Shown: piece after piece, positions 50,519-61,740 of the stretch
Layout of the letters: every line of letters starts with the position of its first letter
Numbering within the stretch: the first letter of the stretch is position 1
Source: Escherichia phage vB_Eco_Solly
DNA length: 64,000 nucleotides
Strand: one strand, 5' to 3'
Sequence record: OY720021
The notes under the pieces: model-generated
Databases searched by the model: none
Seen by the model: only the letters and a program-made list of their open reading frames with translations
Told to the model about the DNA's origin: nothing
Translations under genes and position numbers: made by a program

Positions 50519-50526
50519 TATAAATA
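50519..50526 (+). promoter_or_regulatory. late promoter box TATAAATA (gene 34)
   Basis: exact consensus 35 nt upstream of gene 34 ATG. Confidence 0.65.
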
Positions 50527-50560: not shown

Positions 50561-53500
50561 ATGGCCGAGATTAAAAGAAAGTTCAGAGCAGAAGACGGTC
50601 TGGACGCAGGTGGCGATAAAATAATCAACGTAGCTTTAGCTGATCGTACCGTAGGAACTGACGGTGTTAACGTTGATTACTTAATTCAAGAAAACACAGT
50701 TCAACAATACGATCCAACTCGTGGATATTTAAAAGATTTTGTAATCATTTATGATAACCGCTTTTGGGCTGCTATAAATGATATTCCAAAACCAGCAGGA
50801 GCTTTTAATAGCGGACGCTGGAGAGCATTACGTACCGATGCTAACTGGATTACGGTTTCATCTGGTTCATATCAATTAAAATCCGGTGAAGCTATTTCGG
50901 TTAACACTGCAGCTGGAAATGACATCACGTTTACTTTACCATCTACTCCAATTGATGGTGATACTATCGTTCTCCAAGATATTGGAGGAAAACCTGGAGT
51001 TAACCAAGTTTTAATTGTAGCTCCAGTGCAAAGTATTGTAAACTTTAGAGGTGAACAAGTACGTTCAGTACTAATGACTCATCCAAAGTCACAGCTAGTT
51101 TTAATTTTTAGTAATCGTCTGTGGCAAATGTATGTAGCTGATTATAGTAGAGAAGCTGTAGTTGTAACACCAGCGAATACTTATCAAGCGCAATCTAATG
51201 ATTTTATCGTACGTAGATTTACTTCTGCTGCACCAATTAATGTCAAACTTCCAAGATTTGCTAATCATGGCGATATTATTAATTTCGTCGATTTAGATAA
51301 ACTAAATCCACTTTATCATACAATTGTTACTACATACGATGAAACGACTTCAGTACAAGAAGTTGGAACTCATTCCATTGAAGGCCGTACATCGATTGAC
51401 GGTTTCTTGATGTTTGATGATAATGAGAAATTGTGGAGATTGTTTGACGGGGATAGTAAAGCACGTTTACGCATTATAACGACTAATTCTAATATTCGTC
51501 CAAACGAAGAAGTTATGGTATTTGGTGCGAATAACGGAACAACTCAAACAATTGAGCTTCAGCTTCCTACTGATATCTCTGTTGGTGATACTGTTAAAAT
51601 TTCCATGAATTACATGAGAAAAGGACAAACAGTTAAAATCAAAGCTGCCGGTGAAGATAAAATTGCTTCTTCAGTTCAATTGCTGCAATTCCCAAAACGT
51701 TCAGAATATCCGCCTGAAACTAAATGGGTAACTGTTCAAGAATTAGTTTTTAACGGTGAAACTAATTATGTTCCAGTTTTACAGCTTGCTTATATAGAAG
51801 ATTCTGATGGAAAATACTGGGTTGTACAGCAAAACGTTCCAACTGTAGAAAGAGTAGATTCTTTAAATGATTCTACTAGAGCAAGATTAGGCGTAATTGC
51901 TTTAGCTACACAGGCTCAAGCTAACGTCGATTTAGAAAATTCTCCACAAAAAGAATTAGCAATTACTCCAGAAACATTAGCTAACCGTACTGCTACAGAA
52001 ACTCGTAGAGGTATCGCAAGAATAGCAACTACTGCTCAAGTGAATCAGAACACCACATTCTCTTTTGCAGATGACCTTATCATTACTCCTAAAAAGCTGA
52101 ATGAAAGAACTGCTACAGAAACTCGCAGAGGTGTTGCAGAAATTGCTACTCAGCAAGAAACAAACGCAGGAACAGATGATACAACCATCATTACTCCTAA
52201 AAAGCTTCAAGCTCGTCAAGGTTCTGAATCATTATCCGGTATTGTAACTTTTGTATCTACCGCGGGAGCTACTCCAGCTTCTAGTCGTGAATTAAATGGT
52301 ACAAACGTTTATAATAAAAACACTAATAATTTAGTTGTTTCGCCTAAAGCTCTAGATCAGTATAAAGCTACTCCAACGCAACAAGGTGCAGTAATTTTAG
52401 CAGTTGAAAGTGAAGTAATTGCTGGTCAAAGTCAAGAAGGATGGGCAAATGCTGTTGTAACGCCAGAAACGTTACACAAAAAGACATCAACTGATGGAAG
52501 AATTGGTTTAATTGAAATTGCTACGCAAAGTGAAGTTAATACAGGAACTGATTATACTCGTGCAGTCACTCCTAAAACTTTAAATGACCGTAGAGCAACT
52601 GAAAGTTTAAGTGGTATAGCTGAAATTGCTACGCAAGTTGAATTCGACGCAGGCGTCGACGATACTCGTATCTCTACACCATTAAAAATTAAAACCAGAT
52701 TTAATAGTACTGATCGTACTTCTGTTGTTGCTCTATCTGGATTAGTTGAATCAGGAACTCTCTGGGACCATTATACCCTTAATATTCTTGAAGCAAATGA
52801 GACACAGCGTGGTACACTTCGTGTAGCTACACAGGTTGAAGCTGCTGCAGGAACATTAGATAATGTTTTAATAACTCCTAAAAAGCTTTTAGGTACTAAA
52901 TCTACCGAATCGCAGGAAGGTGTTATTAAAGTTGCAACTCAGTCTGAAACTGTGACTGGAACGTCAGCAAATACTGCTGTATCTCCAAAAAATTTAAAAT
53001 GGATTGTGCAGAGTGAACCTACCTGGGCAGCTACTACTGCGGTAAGAGGTTTTGTTAAAACTTCATCTGGTTCAATTACGTTCGTTGGTAATGATACAGT
53101 CGGTTCTACCCAAGATTTAGAACTGTATGAGAAAAATAGCTATGCAATATCACCATATGAATTAAACCGTGTATTAGCAAATTATTTGCCATTAAAAGCA
53201 AAAGCTGCTGATACAAATTTATTGGATGGTCTAGATTCATCTCAATTCATTCGTAGGGATATTGCACAGACGGTTAATGGTTCACTAACCTTAACCCAAC
53301 AAACGAATCTGAGTGCCCCTCTTGTATCATCTAGTACTGCTACGTTTGGTGGATCAGTTTCGGCAAATAGTACATTAACTATTTCTAATACTGGAACGGC
53401 AACTCGTCTGATTTTTGAGAAAGGACCTCAAACTGGAACTAACCCAGCGCAGACGATGACTATCAGAGTTTGGGGAAATCAGTTTGGTGGTGGATCAGAT

Positions 53501-54430
53501 ACAACACGTTCTACTGTATTTGAAGTTGGTGATGAAACATCTAATCACTTTTATTCTCAACGTAATAAAGCTGGTAATATTACGTTTAGCATTAATGGTA
53601 CTGTGATGCCAATAAATGTTAACGCTTCCGGTTCATTGAATGCGAATGGCGTTGCAACATTTGGTAGTTCAGTTACTGCTAATGGTGAATTCATCAGCAA
53701 GTCTGCAAATGCTTTCAGAGCAATAAACGGTGATTATGGATTCTTTATTCGCAACGATGCTGCTAACACCTATTTCATGCTTACTGCATCGGGTGATCAG
53801 ACTGGCGGATTTAATGGATTACGTCCTTTAGCTATTAACAATCAGTCCGGTCAAGTAACGATTGGTGAAAGCTTAATCATTGCCAAAGGTGCTACTATAA
53901 ATTCAGGTGGTTTAACTGTTAACTCGAGAATTCGTTCTCAGGGTACTAAAACCGCTGATTTATACACCCGTGCACCGACATCTGATACTGTAGGATTCTG
54001 GTCAATCGATATTAATGATTCAGCTACTTATAACCAATTCCCGGGTTATTTTAAAATGGTTGAAAAAACTAATGAAGTGACTGGACTTCCATACTTAGAA
54101 CGTGGCGAAGAAGTTAAATCTCCTGGTACATTGACTCAGTTTGGTAACACACTTGATTCGCTTTACCAAGATTGGATTACTTATCCAACGACTCCAGAAG
54201 CACGTACCACTCGCTGGACACGTACATGGCAGAAAACCAAAAATTCTTGGTCGAGTTTTGTTCAGGTATTTGATGGAGGTAACCCTCCTCAGCCGTCTGA
54301 TATCGGTGCTTTGCCATCTGATAATGCTACAATGGGGAATCTTACTATTCGTGATTTCTTACGAATTGGTAATGTTCGCATTATTCCTGACCCAGTGAAT
54401 AAATCTGTTAAATTTGAATGGATTGAATAA
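50561..54430 (+). CDS. 34: long tail fiber proximal subunit gp34
   Basis: 1289 aa; repeated beta-motifs (ITPKKL...RTATETRRGVAEIAT); late promoter box at 50519. Confidence 0.97.
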   Translation: MAEIKRKFRAEDGLDAGGDKIINVALADRTVGTDGVNVDYLIQENTVQQYDPTRGYLKDFVIIYDNRFWAAINDIPKPAGAFNSGRWRALRTDANWITVSSGSYQLKSGEAISVNTAAGNDITFTLPSTPIDGDTIVLQDIGGKPGVNQVLIVAPVQSIVNFRGEQVRSVLMTHPKSQLVLIFSNRLWQMYVADYSREAVVVTPANTYQAQSNDFIVRRFTSAAPINVKLPRFANHGDIINFVDLDKLNPLYHTIVTTYDETTSVQEVGTHSIEGRTSIDGFLMFDDNEKLWRLFDGDSKARLRIITTNSNIRPNEEVMVFGANNGTTQTIELQLPTDISVGDTVKISMNYMRKGQTVKIKAAGEDKIASSVQLLQFPKRSEYPPETKWVTVQELVFNGETNYVPVLQLAYIEDSDGKYWVVQQNVPTVERVDSLNDSTRARLGVIALATQAQANVDLENSPQKELAITPETLANRTATETRRGIARIATTAQVNQNTTFSFADDLIITPKKLNERTATETRRGVAEIATQQETNAGTDDTTIITPKKLQARQGSESLSGIVTFVSTAGATPASSRELNGTNVYNKNTNNLVVSPKALDQYKATPTQQGAVILAVESEVIAGQSQEGWANAVVTPETLHKKTSTDGRIGLIEIATQSEVNTGTDYTRAVTPKTLNDRRATESLSGIAEIATQVEFDAGVDDTRISTPLKIKTRFNSTDRTSVVALSGLVESGTLWDHYTLNILEANETQRGTLRVATQVEAAAGTLDNVLITPKKLLGTKSTESQEGVIKVATQSETVTGTSANTAVSPKNLKWIVQSEPTWAATTAVRGFVKTSSGSITFVGNDTVGSTQDLELYEKNSYAISPYELNRVLANYLPLKAKAADTNLLDGLDSSQFIRRDIAQTVNGSLTLTQQTNLSAPLVSSSTATFGGSVSANSTLTISNTGTATRLIFEKGPQTGTNPAQTMTIRVWGNQFGGGSDTTRSTVFEVGDETSNHFYSQRNKAGNITFSINGTVMPINVNASGSLNANGVATFGSSVTANGEFISKSANAFRAINGDYGFFIRNDAANTYFMLTASGDQTGGFNGLRPLAINNQSGQVTIGESLIIAKGATINSGGLTVNSRIRSQGTKTADLYTRAPTSDTVGFWSIDINDSATYNQFPGYFKMVEKTNEVTGLPYLERGEEVKSPGTLTQFGNTLDSLYQDWITYPTTPEARTTRWTRTWQKTKNSWSSFVQVFDGGNPPQPSDIGALPSDNATMGNLTIRDFLRIGNVRIIPDPVNKSVKFEWIE

Positions 54431-54438
54431 GAGGTATT

Positions 54439-55554
54439 ATGGAAAAATTTATGGCAGAGTTTGGACAAGGATATGTCCAAACGCCATTTTTATCGGAAAG
54501 TAATTCAGTAAGATACAAAATAAGTATAGCGGGTTCTTGCCCGCTTTCTACTGCAGGACCATACGTTAAATTTCAAGATAATCCTGTTGGAAGTCAAACA
54601 TTTAGCGCAGGTCTTCATCTAAGAGTTTTTGACCCTTCTACAGGAGCATTAGTTGATAGTAAGTCATATGCTTTTTCGACTTCAAATGATACTACATCAG
54701 CTGCTTTTGTTAGTTTCATGAATTCTTTGACGAATAATCGAATTGTTGCTATATTAACTAACGGAAAGGTTAATTTTCCTCCTGAAGTAGTATCTTGGTT
54801 AAGAACCTCCGGAACGTCTGCTTTTCCATCTGACTCTATATTGTCGAGATTTGATGTATCATATGCTGCTTTTTATACTTCTTCTAAAAGAGCTATCGCA
54901 TTAGAACATGTTAAATTAAGTAACAGAAAAAGCACAGATGATTATCAAACTGTATTAGATGTAGTATTTGATAGTTTAGAAGATGTTGGAGCGACAGGAT
55001 TTCCTAAAAGAACATACGAAAGCGTTGAGCAATTTATGTCAGCTGTTGGTGGAACTAATAACGAAATTGCGCGTTTACCGACTTCATCAGCGATAAGTAA
55101 ACTATCTGACTACAATTTAATTCCTGGCGATGTTCTTTATCTTAAAGCACAACTATATGCTGATGCCGATTTACTTGCGCTTGGAACTACAAATATATCT
55201 ATCCGTTTTTATAATGCATCGAATGGATATATTTCCTCGACACAAGCTGAGTTTACTGGGCAAGCTGGGTCATGGGAATTAAAGGAAGATTATGTAGTTG
55301 TTCCAGAAAATGCAGTTGGATTTACGATATATGCACAAAGAACTGCTAAAGCTGGCCAAGGTGGCATGAGAAATTTAAGCTTTTCTGAAGTATCAAGAAA
55401 CGGCGGAATTTCAAAACCTGCTGAATTTGGCGTCAATGGTATTCGAGTTAATTATGTCTGTGAATCTGCTTCACCTCCGGATATAATGGTACTTCCTACA
55501 CAAGCATCGTCTAAAACTGGTAAAGTGTTTGGGCAAGAATTTAGAGAAGTATAA
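54439..55554 (+). CDS. 35: long tail fiber hinge protein gp35
   Basis: 371 aa; synteny 34-35-36-37. Confidence 0.93.
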   Translation: MEKFMAEFGQGYVQTPFLSESNSVRYKISIAGSCPLSTAGPYVKFQDNPVGSQTFSAGLHLRVFDPSTGALVDSKSYAFSTSNDTTSAAFVSFMNSLTNNRIVAILTNGKVNFPPEVVSWLRTSGTSAFPSDSILSRFDVSYAAFYTSSKRAIALEHVKLSNRKSTDDYQTVLDVVFDSLEDVGATGFPKRTYESVEQFMSAVGGTNNEIARLPTSSAISKLSDYNLIPGDVLYLKAQLYADADLLALGTTNISIRFYNASNGYISSTQAEFTGQAGSWELKEDYVVVPENAVGFTIYAQRTAKAGQGGMRNLSFSEVSRNGGISKPAEFGVNGIRVNYVCESASPPDIMVLPTQASSKTGKVFGQEFREV

Positions 55555-55559
55555 ATTGA

Positions 55560-55577
55560 GGGAGCCTTCGGGTTCCC
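55560..55577 (+). terminator. hairpin terminator after gene 35
   Basis: GGGAGCC-TTCG-GGTTCCC followed by TTTTTC. Confidence 0.7.
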
Positions 55578-55585
55578 TTTTTCTT

Positions 55586-55593
55586 TATAAATA
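55586..55593 (+). promoter_or_regulatory. late promoter box TATAAATA (genes 36/37)
   Basis: exact consensus 24 nt upstream of gene 36 ATG. Confidence 0.65.
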
Positions 55594-55616: not shown

Positions 55617-56279
55617 ATGGCTGATTTAAAAGTAGGTTCAACAACCGGAGGCTCTGTCATTTGGCATCAAGGAAATTTTCCATTGAATCCAGCCGGTGAC
55701 GATGTACTCTATAAATCATTTAAAATATATTCAGAATATAATAAACCACAAGCTGCTGATAACGATTTCGTTTCTAAAGCTAATGGTGGTACTTACGCCG
55801 CGACTGTTCGATTTAATGGAGGAGTACATGTTCCTACTATAGGTAGTAGTCAACAGTGCGGTGTTTATCCGGGTAACGGTGATGCAGCTACTTTTGCTAT
55901 GGCAAATATTGACATCGTTTCGTGGAATGGTATTGGTTTTAAATCATCACAAGGTTCAGCAGACCGAACTGTTGTAATTAATGCACGTAATGGTGATATT
56001 AGTACAAAAGGCGTTGTGACAGCAGTAGGTCAAATAAGAAGTAATGCAGTTTCTCCTGTATCAGCAAATGACCTTACTAGAAAGGACTATGTTGATGGAG
56101 CAATAAATACTGTTACGGCAAATGCGAACTCTAGAGTGTTACGATCTGGTGACACTATGACGGGAAACTTAACCGCACCAAACTTTTTTTCGCAGAATCC
56201 TGCATCTCAACCTTCACACGTTCCACGATTTGACCAAATCGTAATTAAGGATTCTGTTCAAGATTTCGGCTATTATTAA
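55617..56279 (+). CDS. 36: long tail fiber distal subunit connector gp36
   Basis: 220 aa; late promoter box at 55586. Confidence 0.93.
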
Positions 56280-56287
56280 GAGGACTT

Positions 56288-59200
56288 ATGGCTACTTTAA
56301 AACAAATACAATTTAAAAGAAGCAAAACCGCAGGTGCACGTCCTGCTGCTTCAGTATTAGCCGAAGGCGAATTGGCTATAAACTTAAAAGATAGAACAAT
56401 TTTTACTAAAGATGATTCAGGAAATATCATTGATTTAAGCATTTCCGCTGGCGGTAATATCAGTGGAAATATCACACAAACTGGAGATTATTTACAGAAC
56501 GGTACATACAATCTCAATGGAAATCAGTTTGTTTATGCAGGAAAATATATTGAATTTTTACCTAAAACAGCTGGTAATGGTGCGTGGGCAAATCAACACC
56601 TAAATAAAGCTCCTATCTTTACAGATTTAAGTTCAACTACTTCTATTTCAGAATATCATCCACTCATTAAGCAACGCTATAAAGATGGAACTTTTTCAGC
56701 GGGTACATTGGTTGCTGAAGGAAGTTTTAAGATTCATTACATCAATGAATCTGGGGATTCGAAATATTGGACTTTTAATCGTAATGGTAATTTCCAAGTT
56801 GACACAGGCGATTTATTTGTCAGCAAAGGTAATATTTCCGCTTCAGGCAATATTAATTCAGCTACTGGAATAGTTTCTGCTCCACAGATTAATACAAAAA
56901 CCATAGTTTTTGATACAAAGGCATTCGGACAATACGATTCGCAGTCATTAGTTCAATATGTTTATCCTGGAACAGGTGAAGAAAATGGTATAAACTATCT
57001 TCGTAAAGTTCGAGCTAAATCAGGCGGAACTATTTATCATGAAATCGCTTCAGCTCAAACTGGTAAGAATGATGAAATTTCTTGGTGGACCGGAAATACA
57101 CTTACTACTAAATTAATGGGTCTTCGTAATGATGGAGCAATGGTATTACGTCGTTCACTTGCTATTGGCACAATTACTGCTGACGAAAATACTAACAACT
57201 ATGGTTCTCCTACTCCAATGGGAGAAAGATATATTGCTTTGGGCGATGCCGCCACTGGTTTAAAATACGTCAAGCAGGGTGTTTATGATTTAGTAGGTAA
57301 TTGGAATTCTGTTGCTTCTATCACTCCTGACAGTTTCCGTAGTACTCGTAAAGGTATATTTGGTCGTTCCGAGGACCAAGGCGCAACTTGGATAATGCCT
57401 GGTACAAATGCTGCTCTCTTGTCTGTTCAAACCCAAGCTGATAATAACAATGCTGGAGACGGACAAACCCATATCGGGTACAATGCTGGCGGTAAAATGA
57501 ACCACTATTTCCGTGGTACAGGTCAGATGAATATCAATACCCAACAAGGTATGGAAATTAACCCGGGTATTTTAAAATTGGTAACTGGCTCTAATAAAGT
57601 ACAGTTTTATGCTGACGGCGGTATTACATCTGTTAAGCAGCTTTCAATATATAATGGCGTATATTTAGCAGCTAATAATTCTACTGCTGGGCTAACATTC
57701 GCTCCAACTACTACAGTTGATGGCACTAAGCAAATTTTGTGGGAAGGTGGTACTCGTGCTGGGCAGAATAAAAGCTACGTAACTGTTAAAGCATGGGGTA
57801 ATTCATTTAACGCATCCGGCGATCGTACTCGTGAAACTGTATTTGAAGTTAGTGACGGGCAAGGATATTATTTTTATTCACAGCGTTTGGCTCCAAGTGG
57901 CTCTGAAACTACTGGGCCTGTTGTAACCCAGTTCAATGGACAAGTTAATGCTAGAGGGAGCATTATCACCGATGGAAGTCTTAGAGTTAATGGATTAAGT
58001 ACATTATCCGGACAAGTTACTATGGATAACGGGCTTGTTTTATCCGGCGGTGGTTCTATTACCGGTCAAGTTAAAATTGGTAATACCGTAGATGCTTTCC
58101 GTATTTACAATGCTGAATATGGAGCTATTTTCCGTCGTTCTGAAGCGTCTTTGCATATTATACCTACACTTAAAGATGCAGGTGAAAGTGGCGGTATTTC
58201 TAACCTTCGCCCATTGAGCATCTCACTTAACAATGGTATGGTTCAAATGCGCCATTCTGTTACGTTAGGTGATGATGGTGCAGGCGGTAATATGGTGACG
58301 GTTGATAATGATTCTAAAGTTATGGTAATGACGACTAATAGCCGTATTAGTCCTAACTTCCGTATGCAAATTGGACAGTCGTCTTATATTGATGTGGAAT
58401 GTACTGATGCTGTGAGACCTGCTGGAGCCGGTTCTTTTGCTTCACAAAATAATGAAAATGTACGTGCGCCGTTCTATATGAATATTGATAGAACTGATAC
58501 TAGTACATATGTTCCTATTGTGAAACAAAGATACGTTCAAAATAATAGTTGCTATTCTATTGGTACTTTAATTAATGGTGGTAACTTTAGAGTTCATTAT
58601 CACGAAGGTGGTGACGGCGTTTCTACTGGCGCAATTATAAAGGATTTAGGTTGGGAATTTAATAAAAACGGTGATTTTTATTCTCCTGGTAAATTAGGCG
58701 CTGGTAATGTTCGTATTGGTACGGATGGTAATATCACTGGCGGTTCATTACCTAACTTTGCTAACTTGAACTTGACATTAGACCGTAAAGTCAATACCCG
58801 AATGGTTTCTTATTCAGGTACTGGCGGTTGGTATAAATTAGCCACTGTAACAATGCCACAATCCACTTCAACCGTCACATTCGAAATTGCTGGTGGTAAT
58901 GGATATAATATCAACATCCCACACCAATGCGTTACTTCGAAAATCGTTTTAAGAACTTCGAACAATAACCCGAAAGGTATTAACGCTGTTGTTTGGTCGA
59001 TGGATACCGATCAGGGTATTAAGAATGTTGCAACGGTTAATACATCAGGCGATGTTTATGACATCTATGTAAACGTTGGTACTTATGCTCAGGCGTTAGC
59101 AGTTTCTTATTATGCTACTCCTAATGCTACCATTAATCAGATATTTGCAACGGACCAACCGGGTGCAACAGAAACTGCGGTTGAACTTCCTGAGACGGCT

Positions 59201-60235
59201 ATTCAAGGACAGGTTGCTAGTGTTCTGAACAACTTGGCTCCTACCCCTAACGGTGTGAAGCGTTATGAAGCCGATTCTGAAATAGCTATTAATAGCCAAA
59301 CCGGTATTCGTATCAGAAGCAATGCCGATAAAACTGGTTCTGTGGCTACAATGTTACGAAATGACGGCGGTAGTTTTTATATTCTGTTTACAGATAAAAA
59401 TGACACCGATGGCGCAGCAACTGTTAATGGTGATTGGAATAGTAAACGTCCTTTCGCAATTAACTTAACAACCGGCGAAGTGATGATGAATAATGGCATA
59501 GCTGTTCGCAGCGCTGCTTTATTCTATAATAGCATAAACGTCAAAGATAATGGTTCTATTAACTTTGATAAATCAGGTGCTAACCCGAGAAATATGAGAA
59601 TATTTCATGCTGGCGATGCTTCTCGCGGTAACCGTATTGAAATTGCCGATGAAACTAACTATATTGCTTACTTTGAAAAGACTCCAGGTGGAGCTAACCG
59701 CTTTGTAGTAAATAATGCTACTGTAGCTGGTGTTAACCAAATGAATTCATTTGGTATTAATATCAATAACGCACTTGGTGGAAATAGTATAGCATTTGGT
59801 GATAATGATACCGGAATTAAACAATCCGCTGACGGAGTTCTTGATATCATTACTAATGCCGCACGCCGAATGAGATTCCGAACGGGTGACACTTATTCTG
59901 ACATGAATATAAATGCCCCAAACGTTTATATTCGTTCTGATATTCGTTTGAAATCTAATTTCAGACCTATTGAAAATGCTCTTGAAAAGGTTGAACAGCT
60001 TGATGGTTTAATCTATGATAAAGCTGACTATATAGGCGGTGAAATTGTTCAAACTGAAGCGGGTATTGTGGCTCAAACACTGCAAGATGTTTTACCAGAA
60101 GCAGTTCGTGAAGTTGAAGATATTAAGGGTAATAAAATACTCACTGTTTCTTCTCAATCCCAGATTGCTCTTCTGGTTGAAGCTGTGAAAACACTTTCTT
60201 CTCGTGTAAAAGAACTTGAATCTAAACTTATGTAA
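56288..60235 (+). CDS. 37: long tail fiber distal subunit gp37, T2-type with C-terminal intramolecular chaperone domain
   Basis: 1315 aa (longer than T4 gp37); C-terminal ~100 aa carries SDIRLK autoprocessing-type motif and a coiled coil. Confidence 0.93.
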
Positions 60236-60236
60236 A

Positions 60237-60254
60237 AGAGGGCTTCGGCCCTCT
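60237..60254 (+). promoter_or_regulatory. stem-loop with UUCG tetraloop between genes 37 and 38
   Basis: AGAGGGC-TTCG-GCCCTCT then ATTTTT. Confidence 0.6.
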
Positions 60255-60265
60255 AAGGATTTTTA

Positions 60266-61051
60266 ATGGCAATTGTAGGTGTTCCTGGCTGGATTGGCGA
60301 ATCTGCCGTGAATGAAACTGGACAACGTTGGATGGATGCTGCGATGAGAGCAGTTCGTGTTTCAGTTCCCGGTTGGATGAGTTCAATGGCTGGGCAATCT
60401 AAAGAAGTATATTATAGCATTGGTGCTAGTAATTCTTATAATAAAGATACATTAATAAACTGGATAAAAGCACAAGGGTCCACGCCTGTTGTTATTACTA
60501 TTACAGGAAATATTGTTTCTCAATCTACTGGTGTTCCATGCTTAGATTTTCCTAGCTCATTAACTAATGCATACGTGACACTTAATATCAATTCAGGCGT
60601 GCACGTTTGGGGCCGTGGCGGGAATGGCGGAAATAACTCTGCCGGTGGAGCAGGAGGAACTGCAATAAATAATGGAATTGGAACTAGATTGCGTATTAAC
60701 AACAATGGTGTTATCGCAGGAGGCGGTGGAGGCGGTGGAGGCGGATATTATTCTCCTTTTTCACAAATGAGATTAACCTTTGGCGGCGGTGGTGGGCGTC
60801 CGTTTGGTGCTGCCGGTGGGTCTGCTAATATGGAACAGGGTGCTACTGCTGGTACTATTTCTGCACCAGGTAAAGGGTCTGTCAACGGTATCTATAATGG
60901 CGGGAATGGTGGTGATGCCGGAGCCGCAGGAGGTAAATGTAATATTCGCGGTCAAGGATCAGAATATAACGGCGGTGCGGCCGGTAAAGCTGTTACTGGT
61001 AATGCTCCAACTTGGACTAAGGTTGGTACAATATACGGTTCAAGAGTATAA
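60266..61051 (+). CDS. 38: gp38 tail fiber tip adhesin with glycine-rich motifs (T2/T6 type)
   Basis: 261 aa; poly-Gly motifs (GGGGGGGGGYY, GGGGGRPFGAAGG) separated by variable segments. Confidence 0.9.
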   Translation: MAIVGVPGWIGESAVNETGQRWMDAAMRAVRVSVPGWMSSMAGQSKEVYYSIGASNSYNKDTLINWIKAQGSTPVVITITGNIVSQSTGVPCLDFPSSLTNAYVTLNINSGVHVWGRGGNGGNNSAGGAGGTAINNGIGTRLRINNNGVIAGGGGGGGGGYYSPFSQMRLTFGGGGGRPFGAAGGSANMEQGATAGTISAPGKGSVNGIYNGGNGGDAGAAGGKCNIRGQGSEYNGGAAGKAVTGNAPTWTKVGTIYGSRV

Positions 61052-61083: not shown

Positions 61084-61740
61084 ATGGCAGCACCTAGAAT
61101 ATCATTTTCGCCCTCTGATATTCTATTTGGTGTTCTAGATCGCTTGTTCAAAGATAACGCTACCGGGAAAGTTCTTGCTTCCCGGGTAGCTGTCGTAATT
61201 CTTTTATTTATGATGGCGATTGTTTGGTATAGGGGAGATAGTTTCTTTGAGTACTATAAGCAATCAAAGTATGAAACATACAGTGAAATTATTGAAAAGG
61301 AAAGAAATGCACGCTTTGAATCTGTCGCCCTGGAACAACTCCAGATAGTTCATATATCATCTGAGGCAGACTTTAGTGCGGTGTATTCTTTCCGCCCTAA
61401 AAACTTAAACTATTTTGTTGATATTATAGCATACGAAGGAAGATTACCTTCAACAATAACTGAAAAATCACTTGGAGGATATCCTGTTGATAAAACTATG
61501 GATGAATATATAGTTCATTTAAATGGACGTCATTATTATTCTGACTCAAAATTTGCTTTTTTACCAACTAAAAAGCCTACTCCCGAAATAAACTACATGT
61601 ACAGTTGTCCATATTTTAATTTGGATAATATCTATGCTGGAACGATAACCATGTACTGGTATAGAAATGATCATATAAGTAATGACCGCCTTGAATCAAT
61701 ATGCGCTCAGGCGGCCAGAATATTAGGAAGGGCTAAATAA
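61084..61740 (+). CDS. t: holin T
   Basis: 218 aa; single N-terminal TM segment plus large periplasmic domain. Confidence 0.95.
   Translation: MAAPRISFSPSDILFGVLDRLFKDNATGKVLASRVAVVILLFMMAIVWYRGDSFFEYYKQSKYETYSEIIEKERNARFESVALEQLQIVHISSEADFSAVYSFRPKNLNYFVDIIAYEGRLPSTITEKSLGGYPVDKTMDEYIVHLNGRHYYSDSKFAFLPTKKPTPEINYMYSCPYFNLDNIYAGTITMYWYRNDHISNDRLESICAQAARILGRAK

Follow-up and report, generated by a model that had tools for sequence, protein, structure and literature searches.

A T2-type gp37/gp38 distal tail-fibre module with a predicted Tsx-binding tip adhesin in Escherichia phage vB_Eco_Solly

Knowledge of the T2-type gp37/gp38 system goes back to the 1980s, and the S16 structure was solved in 2018. 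Papers on predicting receptors from the phylogeny of gp38, together with gp38 swapping, appeared in 2011 and once more in 2025-2026. In T2, whose receptor is FadL, a gp37 of 1341 aa is accompanied by a gp38 of 262 aa. In T6, gp38 is a Tsx adhesin of 261 aa, and gp37 measures 994 aa, including an intramolecular chaperone domain (IMC) of 113 aa. T4 follows a different arrangement, in which the receptor-binding tip is part of gp37 itself (1026 aa) and an unrelated protein of 183 aa, also named gp38, serves as a chaperone. The initial annotation of the DNA described here had taken a long gp37 as a mark of the T2/T6 type, which does not hold, the T6 protein being shorter than that of T4. A structural template for gp38 and for the gp37 tip and IMC is provided by the gp37-gp38 complex of S16 (PDB: 6F45), a phage that binds OmpC according to the title of reference 47 in PMC7917993. 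That the variable segments of gp38 set receptor specificity, as the initial annotation expected, and that they are exchangeable has been established experimentally (PMC3157838; PMC12032242; bioRxiv 10.64898/2026.04.02.716166).

The window analyzed here, a stretch of 64,000 nucleotides, contains a locus that we interpret with high confidence as the T2-type distal long-tail-fibre module of a T-even phage, in which gp37 would carry a self-removing chaperone and gp38 would form a cap most likely binding Tsx. Its gp37 is 59.5% identical to that of T2 over the full length, and the two loci share a 99-aa IMC, the gene order, and a hairpin between genes 37 and 38. They differ in the loops of gp38, which are unrelated, in several gp37 segments that come from other lineages, and in the gp38 allele, which is of the Tsx type here, whereas T2 uses FadL. 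The gp37 of T6 is related to the one here at its two ends only. Relative to T4, the gene order and the genes on either side are the same, and gp37 is shared over its proximal two thirds; the part that is T2-type, in the sense of differing from T4, comprises only the distal ~2.2 kb (58814-61051), encoding gp37 residues 843-1315 and gp38.

Gene order and transcription signals

Within the window, the module and its neighbors show the gene order 34-35-36-37-38-t. Gene 36 (55617..56279, + strand) encodes the distal hinge connector of 220 aa (Pfam Phage_T4_gp36, E 2.3e-37; phrog_1425, E 3.4e-71), the attachment point of the gp37 N-terminus. Gene 37 (56288..60235, +) is an intact open reading frame for the distal long-tail-fibre subunit, a precursor of 1315 aa and 141.3 kDa that is matched over its full length by phrog_1699. 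Gene 38 (60266..61051, +), likewise intact, encodes the receptor-recognizing tip adhesin of 261 aa and 25.8 kDa (Pfam GP38 and Gp38_N); both reading frames are exactly as first annotated. The gp37 protein is 100% identical to CAJ1578810.1 of Escherichia phage vB_Eco_Solly (Tequatrovirus), and gp38 is letter-for-letter the same as CAJ1578812.1 of this phage and as WP_260939298.1. Downstream, the module is flanked by the conserved holin gene t (61084..61740, +; Pfam Phage_holin_T, E 5.4e-116), the DNA of which is 96-100% identical in six relatives whose loci reach it (Bas45, Bas39, EL, T6, and T2; T4 and Bas43 with the start of the gene only).

Upstream of gene 36 lies an exact match to the T4-type late promoter consensus, TATAAATA (55586..55593, +), with a second copy at 50519, upstream of gene 34. 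Judging from the known T4 consensus, the copy at 55586 is likely to represent the start of a late transcript covering genes 36, 37, and 38 (and t). A scan for sigma-70 promoters was uninformative, with 57 matches where 41 were expected; the signals relevant here are T4 late promoters. Between genes 37 and 38, a gap of 30 nt accommodates a GC-rich hairpin with a UUCG tetraloop (60237..60254, +; predicted -13.4 kcal/mol), and the ribosome-binding site of gene 38 (AAGGA) is located 3' of it. This hairpin is kept in T2, Bas39, Bas43, and EL, and T6 has another hairpin in the same place.

The gp37 shaft and its C-terminal chaperone domain

The first 842 residues of gp37 (56288..58813, +) form the shaft common to T4, aligning by BLASTP with residues 1-813 of T4 gp37 at 60% identity, with residues 338-436 being identical between the two. 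This part includes a gp34-like domain (residues 467-660; 57686-58267, +; Pfam Gp34_trimer; PDB: 4UXE). Taken for itself, the shared shaft, with its identical stretches, would be compatible with a fibre built as in T4, with gp37 carrying its own receptor-binding tip and gp38 serving assembly as a chaperone only, without being part of the virion. However, the homology stops at residue 813 of T4 gp37, leaving its C-terminal ~213 residues unmatched; no PDB match to T4 gp37 appears at E<=0.01, and gp37 lacks HxH motifs beyond residue 770. Nor does gp38 resemble the T4 gp38 chaperone (E 19): it belongs to the adhesin family PF05268 and is a full-length homolog of the S16 adhesin (6F45_D; E 2.4e-49, query 8-259 to chain 6-247). 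With both the C-terminal region of gp37 and gp38 unmatched, a T4-type distal fibre is rejected at the sequence level, and we regard its probability as negligible. The initial assignment of gp38 to the T2/T6-type tip adhesins is borne out by the same comparisons.

Beyond the shaft, residues 843-1216 of gp37 (58814..59935, +) represent the T2-type distal part without a T4 counterpart. It opens with a beta-rich variable module (residues 843-1000; 58814-59287, +) and closes with the tip (residues ~1159-1216, within 58814..59935, +), which aligns with the S16 gp37 tip (6F45_A) and is the predicted docking site of gp38. The variable module is 98% identical to that of Bas45, 46-55% identical to those of other T-evens, and 38-49% identical to tail fibres of unrelated phages (Felixounavirus-like, T5-like, and SSU5-like). 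A PDB sequence search with residues 830-1004 returned no match at E<=10, and a single-sequence AlphaFold2 model of this segment was unusable (mean pLDDT 37.1, pTM 0.29). Conceivably, the module could bind, for example, surface glycans at a second site on the side of the fibre and so tune host range apart from the gp38 tip, which would turn the fibre into a two-site recognition device, but we consider this improbable. Self-BLAST of gp37 detected no internal repeats at E<=1e-3 except in the gp34-like region, and an NCBIfam scan of gp37 and gp38 matched no family. By eye only, residues 105-170 look similar to 725-800, and residues 602-654 to 1019-1067.

The protein ends in an intramolecular chaperone of the Peptidase S74 type (residues 1217-1315, 99 aa, 10.9 kDa; 59936..60232, +), in agreement with the S74-like domain of ~100 aa with an SDIRLK motif that had been proposed initially. 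The Pfam match (PF13884; E 1.4e-13, 51.3 bits at a cutoff of 22) spans residues 1217-1274 and profile positions 1-58 of 58. SDIRLK begins at residue 1217, and S1217 and K1222 of the SDxxxK motif are intact. Tip and IMC together align with S16 gp37 (6F45_A; E 5.7e-10), placing SDIRLK in register with SDRRIK, and the chaperone domain also gives a weak match to the MYRF autoprocessing domain (7DC3). Within the last ~24 residues of gp37 (~1292-1314), heptad a/d positions are occupied by I, L, or V seven times in a row, the sequence signature of a short coiled-coil-type helix. A coiled coil had been described as following the chaperone domain; the heptad helix is indeed present, but it forms part of the 99-aa domain instead of following it.

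The catalytic role of the Ser/Lys pair is reported to have been established for the S74 chaperone family (Schulz 2010, cited in PMC7917993). By analogy, we predict autocleavage of gp37 between R1216 and S1217 (NVYIR^SDIRLK). The corresponding site in S16 is DLNVS^SDRRIKK (PMC7917993), which differs in the residues preceding the cut (DLNVS in S16, NVYIR here); the 20 residues flanking the predicted site are identical in T2 gp37. Alternatively, the domain could be a non-cleaving relic, in which case gp37 would stay full length and gp38 would attach elsewhere or act transiently, and the Pfam match does cover only 58 of the 99 residues. This scenario is difficult to reconcile with the intact Ser and Lys and with an SDIRLK motif that, like the 10 preceding residues, is the same in every T2-type gp37 examined, including that of T2. 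Furthermore, the gp37 proteins of T2 and T6 are reported to be proteolytically processed (PMC3157838, citing Drexler 1986 for T2), and for the S16 IMC, autocleavage at the position aligned here has been reported (PMC7917993). We hence regard a non-cleaving domain as very improbable and retain self-cleavage at R1216/S1217 as the predicted maturation step.

The gp38 adhesin and its predicted receptor

Two Pfam families describe gp38: Gp38_N (PF21721; E 8.2e-18, 64.6 bits, cutoff 25) at residues 1-42 and GP38 (PF05268; E 3.7e-72, 243.1 bits, cutoff 25) at residues 47-261. The protein is also matched by phrog_2056 (E 3.1e-105) and by 9V85 (E 2.4e-33). Comparison with T2, T6, and S16 delineates an N-terminal attachment domain (60266..60400, +) containing Trp9, Trp22, and Trp37, which align with tryptophans of S16 gp38 that act as prongs inserting into gp37 (PMC7917993). 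Across the first 45 residues, 44 are identical to T2 and 30 to T6, and the beta-helix domain, with 24/70 residues identical to T6, is likewise of a subtype other than that of T6. The subtype of the gp38 N-domain and that of the gp37 tip are both T2, which fits the lock-and-key pairing of these two elements described by Trojet 2011 (PMC3157838).

The polyglycine specificity domain follows at residues 116-241 (60611..60988, +), where the glycine content rises to 37% from 23% in gp38 overall. In an alignment with T2, T6, Bas39, Bas43, and Bas45, it resolves into five glycine blocks, GRM1-5 (residues 116-131, 151-160, 173-186, 211-224, and 236-241, +), separating four variable segments, HVS1-4 (residues 132-150, 161-172, 187-210, and 225-235, +). 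The initial annotation had counted four poly-Gly motifs; five blocks with four segments, found also in the equally long T6 gp38, are the canonical layout (Trojet 2011, PMC3157838). The glycine motifs also align with those of S16 gp38 (6F45_D), and from this sequence homology we infer that gp38 adopts a polyglycine type II sandwich fold. The alignment with T2 and T6, which had been suggested initially, places T6-like HVS2-4 on a T2-like attachment domain.

The closest phenotyped alleles point to Tsx. The gp38 protein is 99.6% identical to those of Bas39 (FriedrichMiescher), JK38, slur02, and others, and the single protein change relative to Bas39 and JK38 is K169R in HVS2. A comparison of the gene 38 DNA with that of Bas39 shows 36 differing positions, 35 synonymous and 1 non-synonymous, indicating strong purifying selection on this allele. 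Bas39 needs Tsx (BASEL supplementary table), and for the Shigella phage JK38, Tsx/Kdo was found by RB-TnSeq. Identity to T6 is high in HVS2 (11/12), HVS3 (18/24), and HVS4 (10/11), and low to T2 (0/12, 5/24, and 3/14, respectively). Given the T6-like HVS2-4 and the near-identity to the gp38 of the Tsx-dependent Bas39 and JK38, we regard Tsx, the nucleoside channel of E. coli, as the most likely primary receptor of this gp38. The Tsx phage Bas43 has another HVS set (HVS2 6/12, HVS3 13/24, HVS4 3/13); hence, the set found here would suffice for Tsx use but is not required for it.

The same architecture might nevertheless serve another or an additional receptor, such as OmpA (as in Bas45), Tsx together with OmpA (as in phage PST), or LPS. 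Overall identity to the gp38 of Bas45 amounts to 86.7%, and the gp37 most similar to the one here is that of Bas45. A single HVS substitution can also switch the receptor, as Q206L does in RB68 from OmpF to OmpW, so that K169R, by which HVS2 of this allele departs from the alleles with a known phenotype, is not formally neutral. Because an OmpA-type protein is this similar, identity across the whole of gp38 cannot tell one receptor from another, and the distinction comes solely from comparing the HVS. In HVS2, identity to Bas45 is 2/12 with a 5-residue indel, against the near-complete match to T6; HVS3 (17/28) lacks the 4-residue insertion of Bas45, and HVS4 matches at 7/11. Moreover, R169 is the T6 residue, and Tsx dependence is documented for two phages that carry the 99.6%-identical allele. 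A different or additional receptor is thus unlikely in our assessment, and OmpA specificity, guessed from the Bas45-like gp37, was rejected since the HVS loops differ. The passages of the vB_Eco_Solly paper (PMC13390438) covered here report no receptor.

With Tsx as the most likely receptor, the T2-type module would function by analogy with its described relatives. Upon late transcription of genes 36-37-38, three gp37 chains would form the fibre shaft, with the C-terminal 99-aa chaperone domain nucleating trimerization. This domain would then cut itself off at Arg1216/Ser1217 via the Ser1217/Lys1222 pair, exposing the hydrophobic gp37 tip, on which one gp38 monomer would dock through its N-terminal domain (Trp9, Trp22, and Trp37). 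The polyglycine sandwich of gp38 would show the loops HVS1-4 to the cell surface, and a loop set of the T6/Tsx type would most likely direct the phage to Tsx as its primary receptor.

Mosaicism of the locus and its annotation

The initial annotation had viewed the module as a replaceable host-range cassette. Its exchangeability agrees with the literature, but a single cassette does not describe the locus, which is a fine mosaic of many recombination segments. The closest gp37, that of Bas45 (PaulHMueller, OmpA-dependent), is 87.8% identical and includes segments at 96-100% DNA identity, whereas the region of the tip and IMC (59.6-60.1 kb) reaches only 64-84%. Bas45 gp38 has an identical N-domain and a specificity domain that is 79% identical, with indels in HVS2 and HVS3. 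Bas39, in turn, combines its near-identical gp38 with a gp37 of 1260 aa that is 71.6% identical to the one here. What is exchanged in nature to change specificity is a unit of ~0.6 kb forming the 3' part of gene 38, and the specificity unit that sets the locus apart from its nearest OmpA-type relative is confined to these 3' ~600 bp.

The T2-type tail-fibre tip described here is ordinary, already known, and well understood, a textbook feature of T-even phages. vB_Eco_Solly itself has been deposited and published; its record labels gp37 as "Phage tail fiber," and records of sibling Durham phages label gp38 as "tail assembly protein." The practical value of our analysis lies in annotation, namely gp38 as the tip adhesin, Tsx as its predicted receptor, and R1216/S1217 as the predicted maturation site of gp37, which is useful for the design of phage cocktails or for planning receptor swaps.

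Fiber gene block and deposited records

The window contains the complete T-even long-tail-fiber gene block, with every gene on the plus strand and named by Pfam and PHROG scans: gene 34 (50561–54430, 1289 aa), gene 35 (54439–55554, 371 aa), gene 36 (55617–56279, 220 aa), gene 37 (56288–60235, 1315 aa), and gene 38 (60266–61051, 261 aa), followed by the holin gene t (61084–61740, 218 aa, also plus strand). An ORF check returned exactly the lengths and coordinates that the initial annotation had given for gp37, the distal fiber subunit, and gp38, the tip adhesin. Downstream of the block, the minus strand carries asiA- and arn-like genes, identified by comparison with relatives. The product of gene 35, the proximal hinge connector, carries a Pfam match to the ILEI (FAM3/interleukin-like EMT inducer) domain at residues 58–127 (E 5.7e-9; 36.8 bits, cutoff 27).

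Exact copies of the T4 late-promoter octamer, TATAAATA, lie 5' of gene 34 (50519) and 5' of gene 36 (55586), the latter directly after a GC-rich hairpin with a UUCG tetraloop and a T-run (55558–55579) in the gap between genes 35 and 36. A second GC-rich hairpin with a UUCG tetraloop (60237–60254, -13.4 kcal/mol) occupies the 37–38 gap; it is kept in T2 and in the T-even relatives Bas39 (FriedrichMiescher), Bas43, and EL, while a single change weakens it in Bas45 (PaulHMueller), and the hairpin at this position in T6 is a different one. These hairpins could stabilize the mRNA or adjust how much gp37 is made relative to gp38, the two standing at 3:1 in the fiber.

Both proteins are letter-for-letter those deposited for vB_Eco_Solly (CAJ1578810.1 and CAJ1578812.1), a Tequatrovirus from the Durham Collection (OY720021.1) whose head is described in its publication as unusually isometric for Tequatrovirus (PMC13390438). 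The best DNA match of the module reaches only 87.8% (PaulHMueller/Bas45) because the phage collection searched lacks Solly's own record. Since the accession numbers skip CAJ1578811, the deposited annotation may hold an extra ORF between or overlapping genes 37 and 38, whose gap (60236–60265) spans only 30 nt. The exact gp38 sequence (60266–61048) is also present in E. coli genome assemblies as WP_260939298.1/MCT7388291.1, on contigs of up to 489 kb; T-even phage sequence within bacterial assemblies suggests contamination or misassembly.

T2-type organization of gp37 and its predicted maturation site

The initial annotation had assigned the module to the T2/T6 type rather than the T4 arrangement, and this assignment holds. 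By BLASTP, T4 gp37 residues 1–813 align with residues 1–842 of the window protein at 60% identity, with no alignment past residue 842; a PDB search of gp37 returned no T4 gp37 match, and the HxH motif is absent distal to residue 770. Likewise, the T4 gp38 chaperone (183 aa) shows no similarity to gp38 of the window (E 19). A T4-type arrangement is rejected on the end of T4 gp37 homology at residue 842, the dissimilarity of the two gp38 proteins, and the lack of a distal HxH. Because the alignment stops there and gp38 is unlike its T4 namesake, the part distinguishing this locus from T4 is gp37 residues 843–1315 plus gp38 (about nt 58814–61051), not the whole 4.76 kb. A long gp37, however, is not diagnostic of the T2 type as had been proposed: T6 gp37 has only 994 aa, yet carries an SDSRLK motif and an intramolecular chaperone domain (IMC) of 113 aa, compared with 1315 aa, SDIRLK, and 99 aa here.

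Immediately distal to this junction, residues 843–1000 (58814–59287) form a beta-rich module with 98% identity to Bas45 but no more than 46–55% to other T-even phages, including T2. It shares 38–49% identity with tail-fiber proteins of unrelated phages, among them Felixounavirus-like, T5-like, and SSU5-like phages and phi458. The module has neither a Pfam family nor a PDB sequence match, its single-sequence AlphaFold2 model is unusable (pLDDT 37), and no NCBIfam model matches gp37 or gp38.

The last 99 residues of gp37 begin with the SDIRLK motif at residue 1217, and a Pfam Peptidase_S74 match covers residues 1217–1274 from profile position 1 (E 1.4e-13; 51.3 bits, cutoff 22), in line with the S74-like domain of roughly 100 aa first noted. 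The coiled coil proposed to follow this domain is real, with seven consecutive heptad a/d positions occupied by I, L, or V at residues ~1292–1314, but it lies inside the 99-aa domain. The final 185 residues align with the gp37 tip-plus-IMC construct of Salmonella phage S16 (6F45_A, E 5.7e-10), with SDIRLK in register with S16 SDRRIK, and weakly match the MYRF autoprocessing domain (7DC3). Autocleavage of the 113-residue S16 IMC is reported between the serines of DLNVS^SDRRIKK, and other T2-like phages have DVYIR^SDGRLK at the homologous site (PMC7917993). By this homology we predict cleavage at R1216/S1217, which would yield gp37(1–1216) of 130.4 kDa and release a 10.9-kDa fragment; the ten residues before the predicted cut and the following SDIRLKSNF are the same in T2, Bas39, Bas43, Bas45, and EL. 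Proteolytic processing of T2 and T6 gp37 before gp38 caps the fiber is reported (Drexler et al. 1986, cited in PMC3157838).

Architecture and predicted receptor of gp38

The 25.8-kDa adhesin has Pfam matches to GP38 (E 3.7e-72) and Gp38_N (E 8.2e-18). It also matches, along its entire length, the crystallized S16 adhesin 6F45_D (E 2.4e-49), with the N-terminal tryptophans W9, W22, and W37 and the glycine motifs aligned. Its glycine runs form five blocks, one more than the four initially counted, separated by four variable segments. Five glycine-rich motifs (GRM1–5) and four hypervariable segments (HVS1–4) are the canonical gp38 layout (PMC3157838; PMC12032242).

Alignment with the T2 and T6 adhesins, proposed as a check, gives a T6-like HVS2–4 and a T2-like N-domain. 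Identity to T6 (Tsx), Bas45 (OmpA), and T2 (FadL) is, respectively, 11/12, 2/12, and 0/12 in HVS2; 18/24, 17/28, and 5/24 in HVS3; and 10/11, 7/11, and 3/14 in HVS4. The N-terminal attachment domain has the opposite pattern (T2 44/45, T6 30/45) and thereby matches the T2-type gp37 tip, as expected from the lock-and-key model of Trojet et al. A single residue, K169R in HVS2, separates this gp38 from that of more than 15 phage records, and T6 likewise has R at this position. Among these, two have been phenotyped: FriedrichMiescher (Bas39), with Tsx as primary receptor (BASEL supplementary table), and JK38, assigned Tsx/Kdo by RB-TnSeq (bioRxiv 10.64898/2026.04.02.716166). From these comparisons, Tsx is the best prediction for the primary receptor, with the caveat that single HVS substitutions are able to switch receptor (bioRxiv 10.64898/2026.04.02.716166).

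Between gene 38 and its EL counterpart there are 28 nucleotide differences (27 synonymous), and 36 separate it from the Bas39 gene. Because 35 of the latter are synonymous, the allele, loops included, is under strong purifying selection. In this Tsx-type allele, the "hypervariable" loops are in fact strongly conserved in protein sequence.

Mosaic structure of the fiber locus

In sliding 120-nt windows, the closest relative from gene 37 into gene 38 changes in the order Bas45, T2, T4, Bas39/Bas43, EL, Bas45, and EL/Bas39. Residues 338–436 of gp37 (57299–57595) are identical to T4 gp37 in protein; the DNA is 93–99% identical to T4, with neighboring stretches closest to T2 or Bas39/Bas43, and is a short T4-derived patch within a T2-lineage gene. 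Islands at the 36/37 junction (~56.2–56.3 kb) and at the end of gene 37 and start of gene 38 (~60.18–60.3 kb) are at least 97% identical to all relatives aligning there; T6 and T4 do not align at the second. From 61.02 kb, at the end of gene 38, onward, identity is 97–99% to most relatives, with T2 at 91% and T6 at 89% in the first window.

Compared with the OmpA-type Bas45, identity is 92–94% up to ~60.53 kb, 65–77% over the GRM/HVS region, and 97% again at 61.02 kb. Given this drop over the GRM/HVS region, the specificity unit exchanged in nature is the ~600-bp 3' part of gene 38. Published swaps point the same way, since moving just the portion of gp38 from HVS2 onward sufficed to change Tsx to OmpA specificity (bioRxiv 10.64898/2026.04.02.716166); recombination between conserved motifs of the fiber locus is long established (PMC3157838). 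The module described at the outset as a replaceable host-range cassette is thus replaceable in principle, although what is exchanged is smaller than the module and the locus as a whole is a patchwork.

Overall, the initial observation is confirmed and its interpretation supported. The gp37/gp38 module is an ordinary member of a well-characterized system, in a phage already deposited and published. To its annotation the analysis contributes a Tsx specificity and a maturation site at R1216/S1217, both predicted, together with a map of the mosaic segments and the point (gp37 residue ~842) at which T4-type sequence gives way to T2-type.
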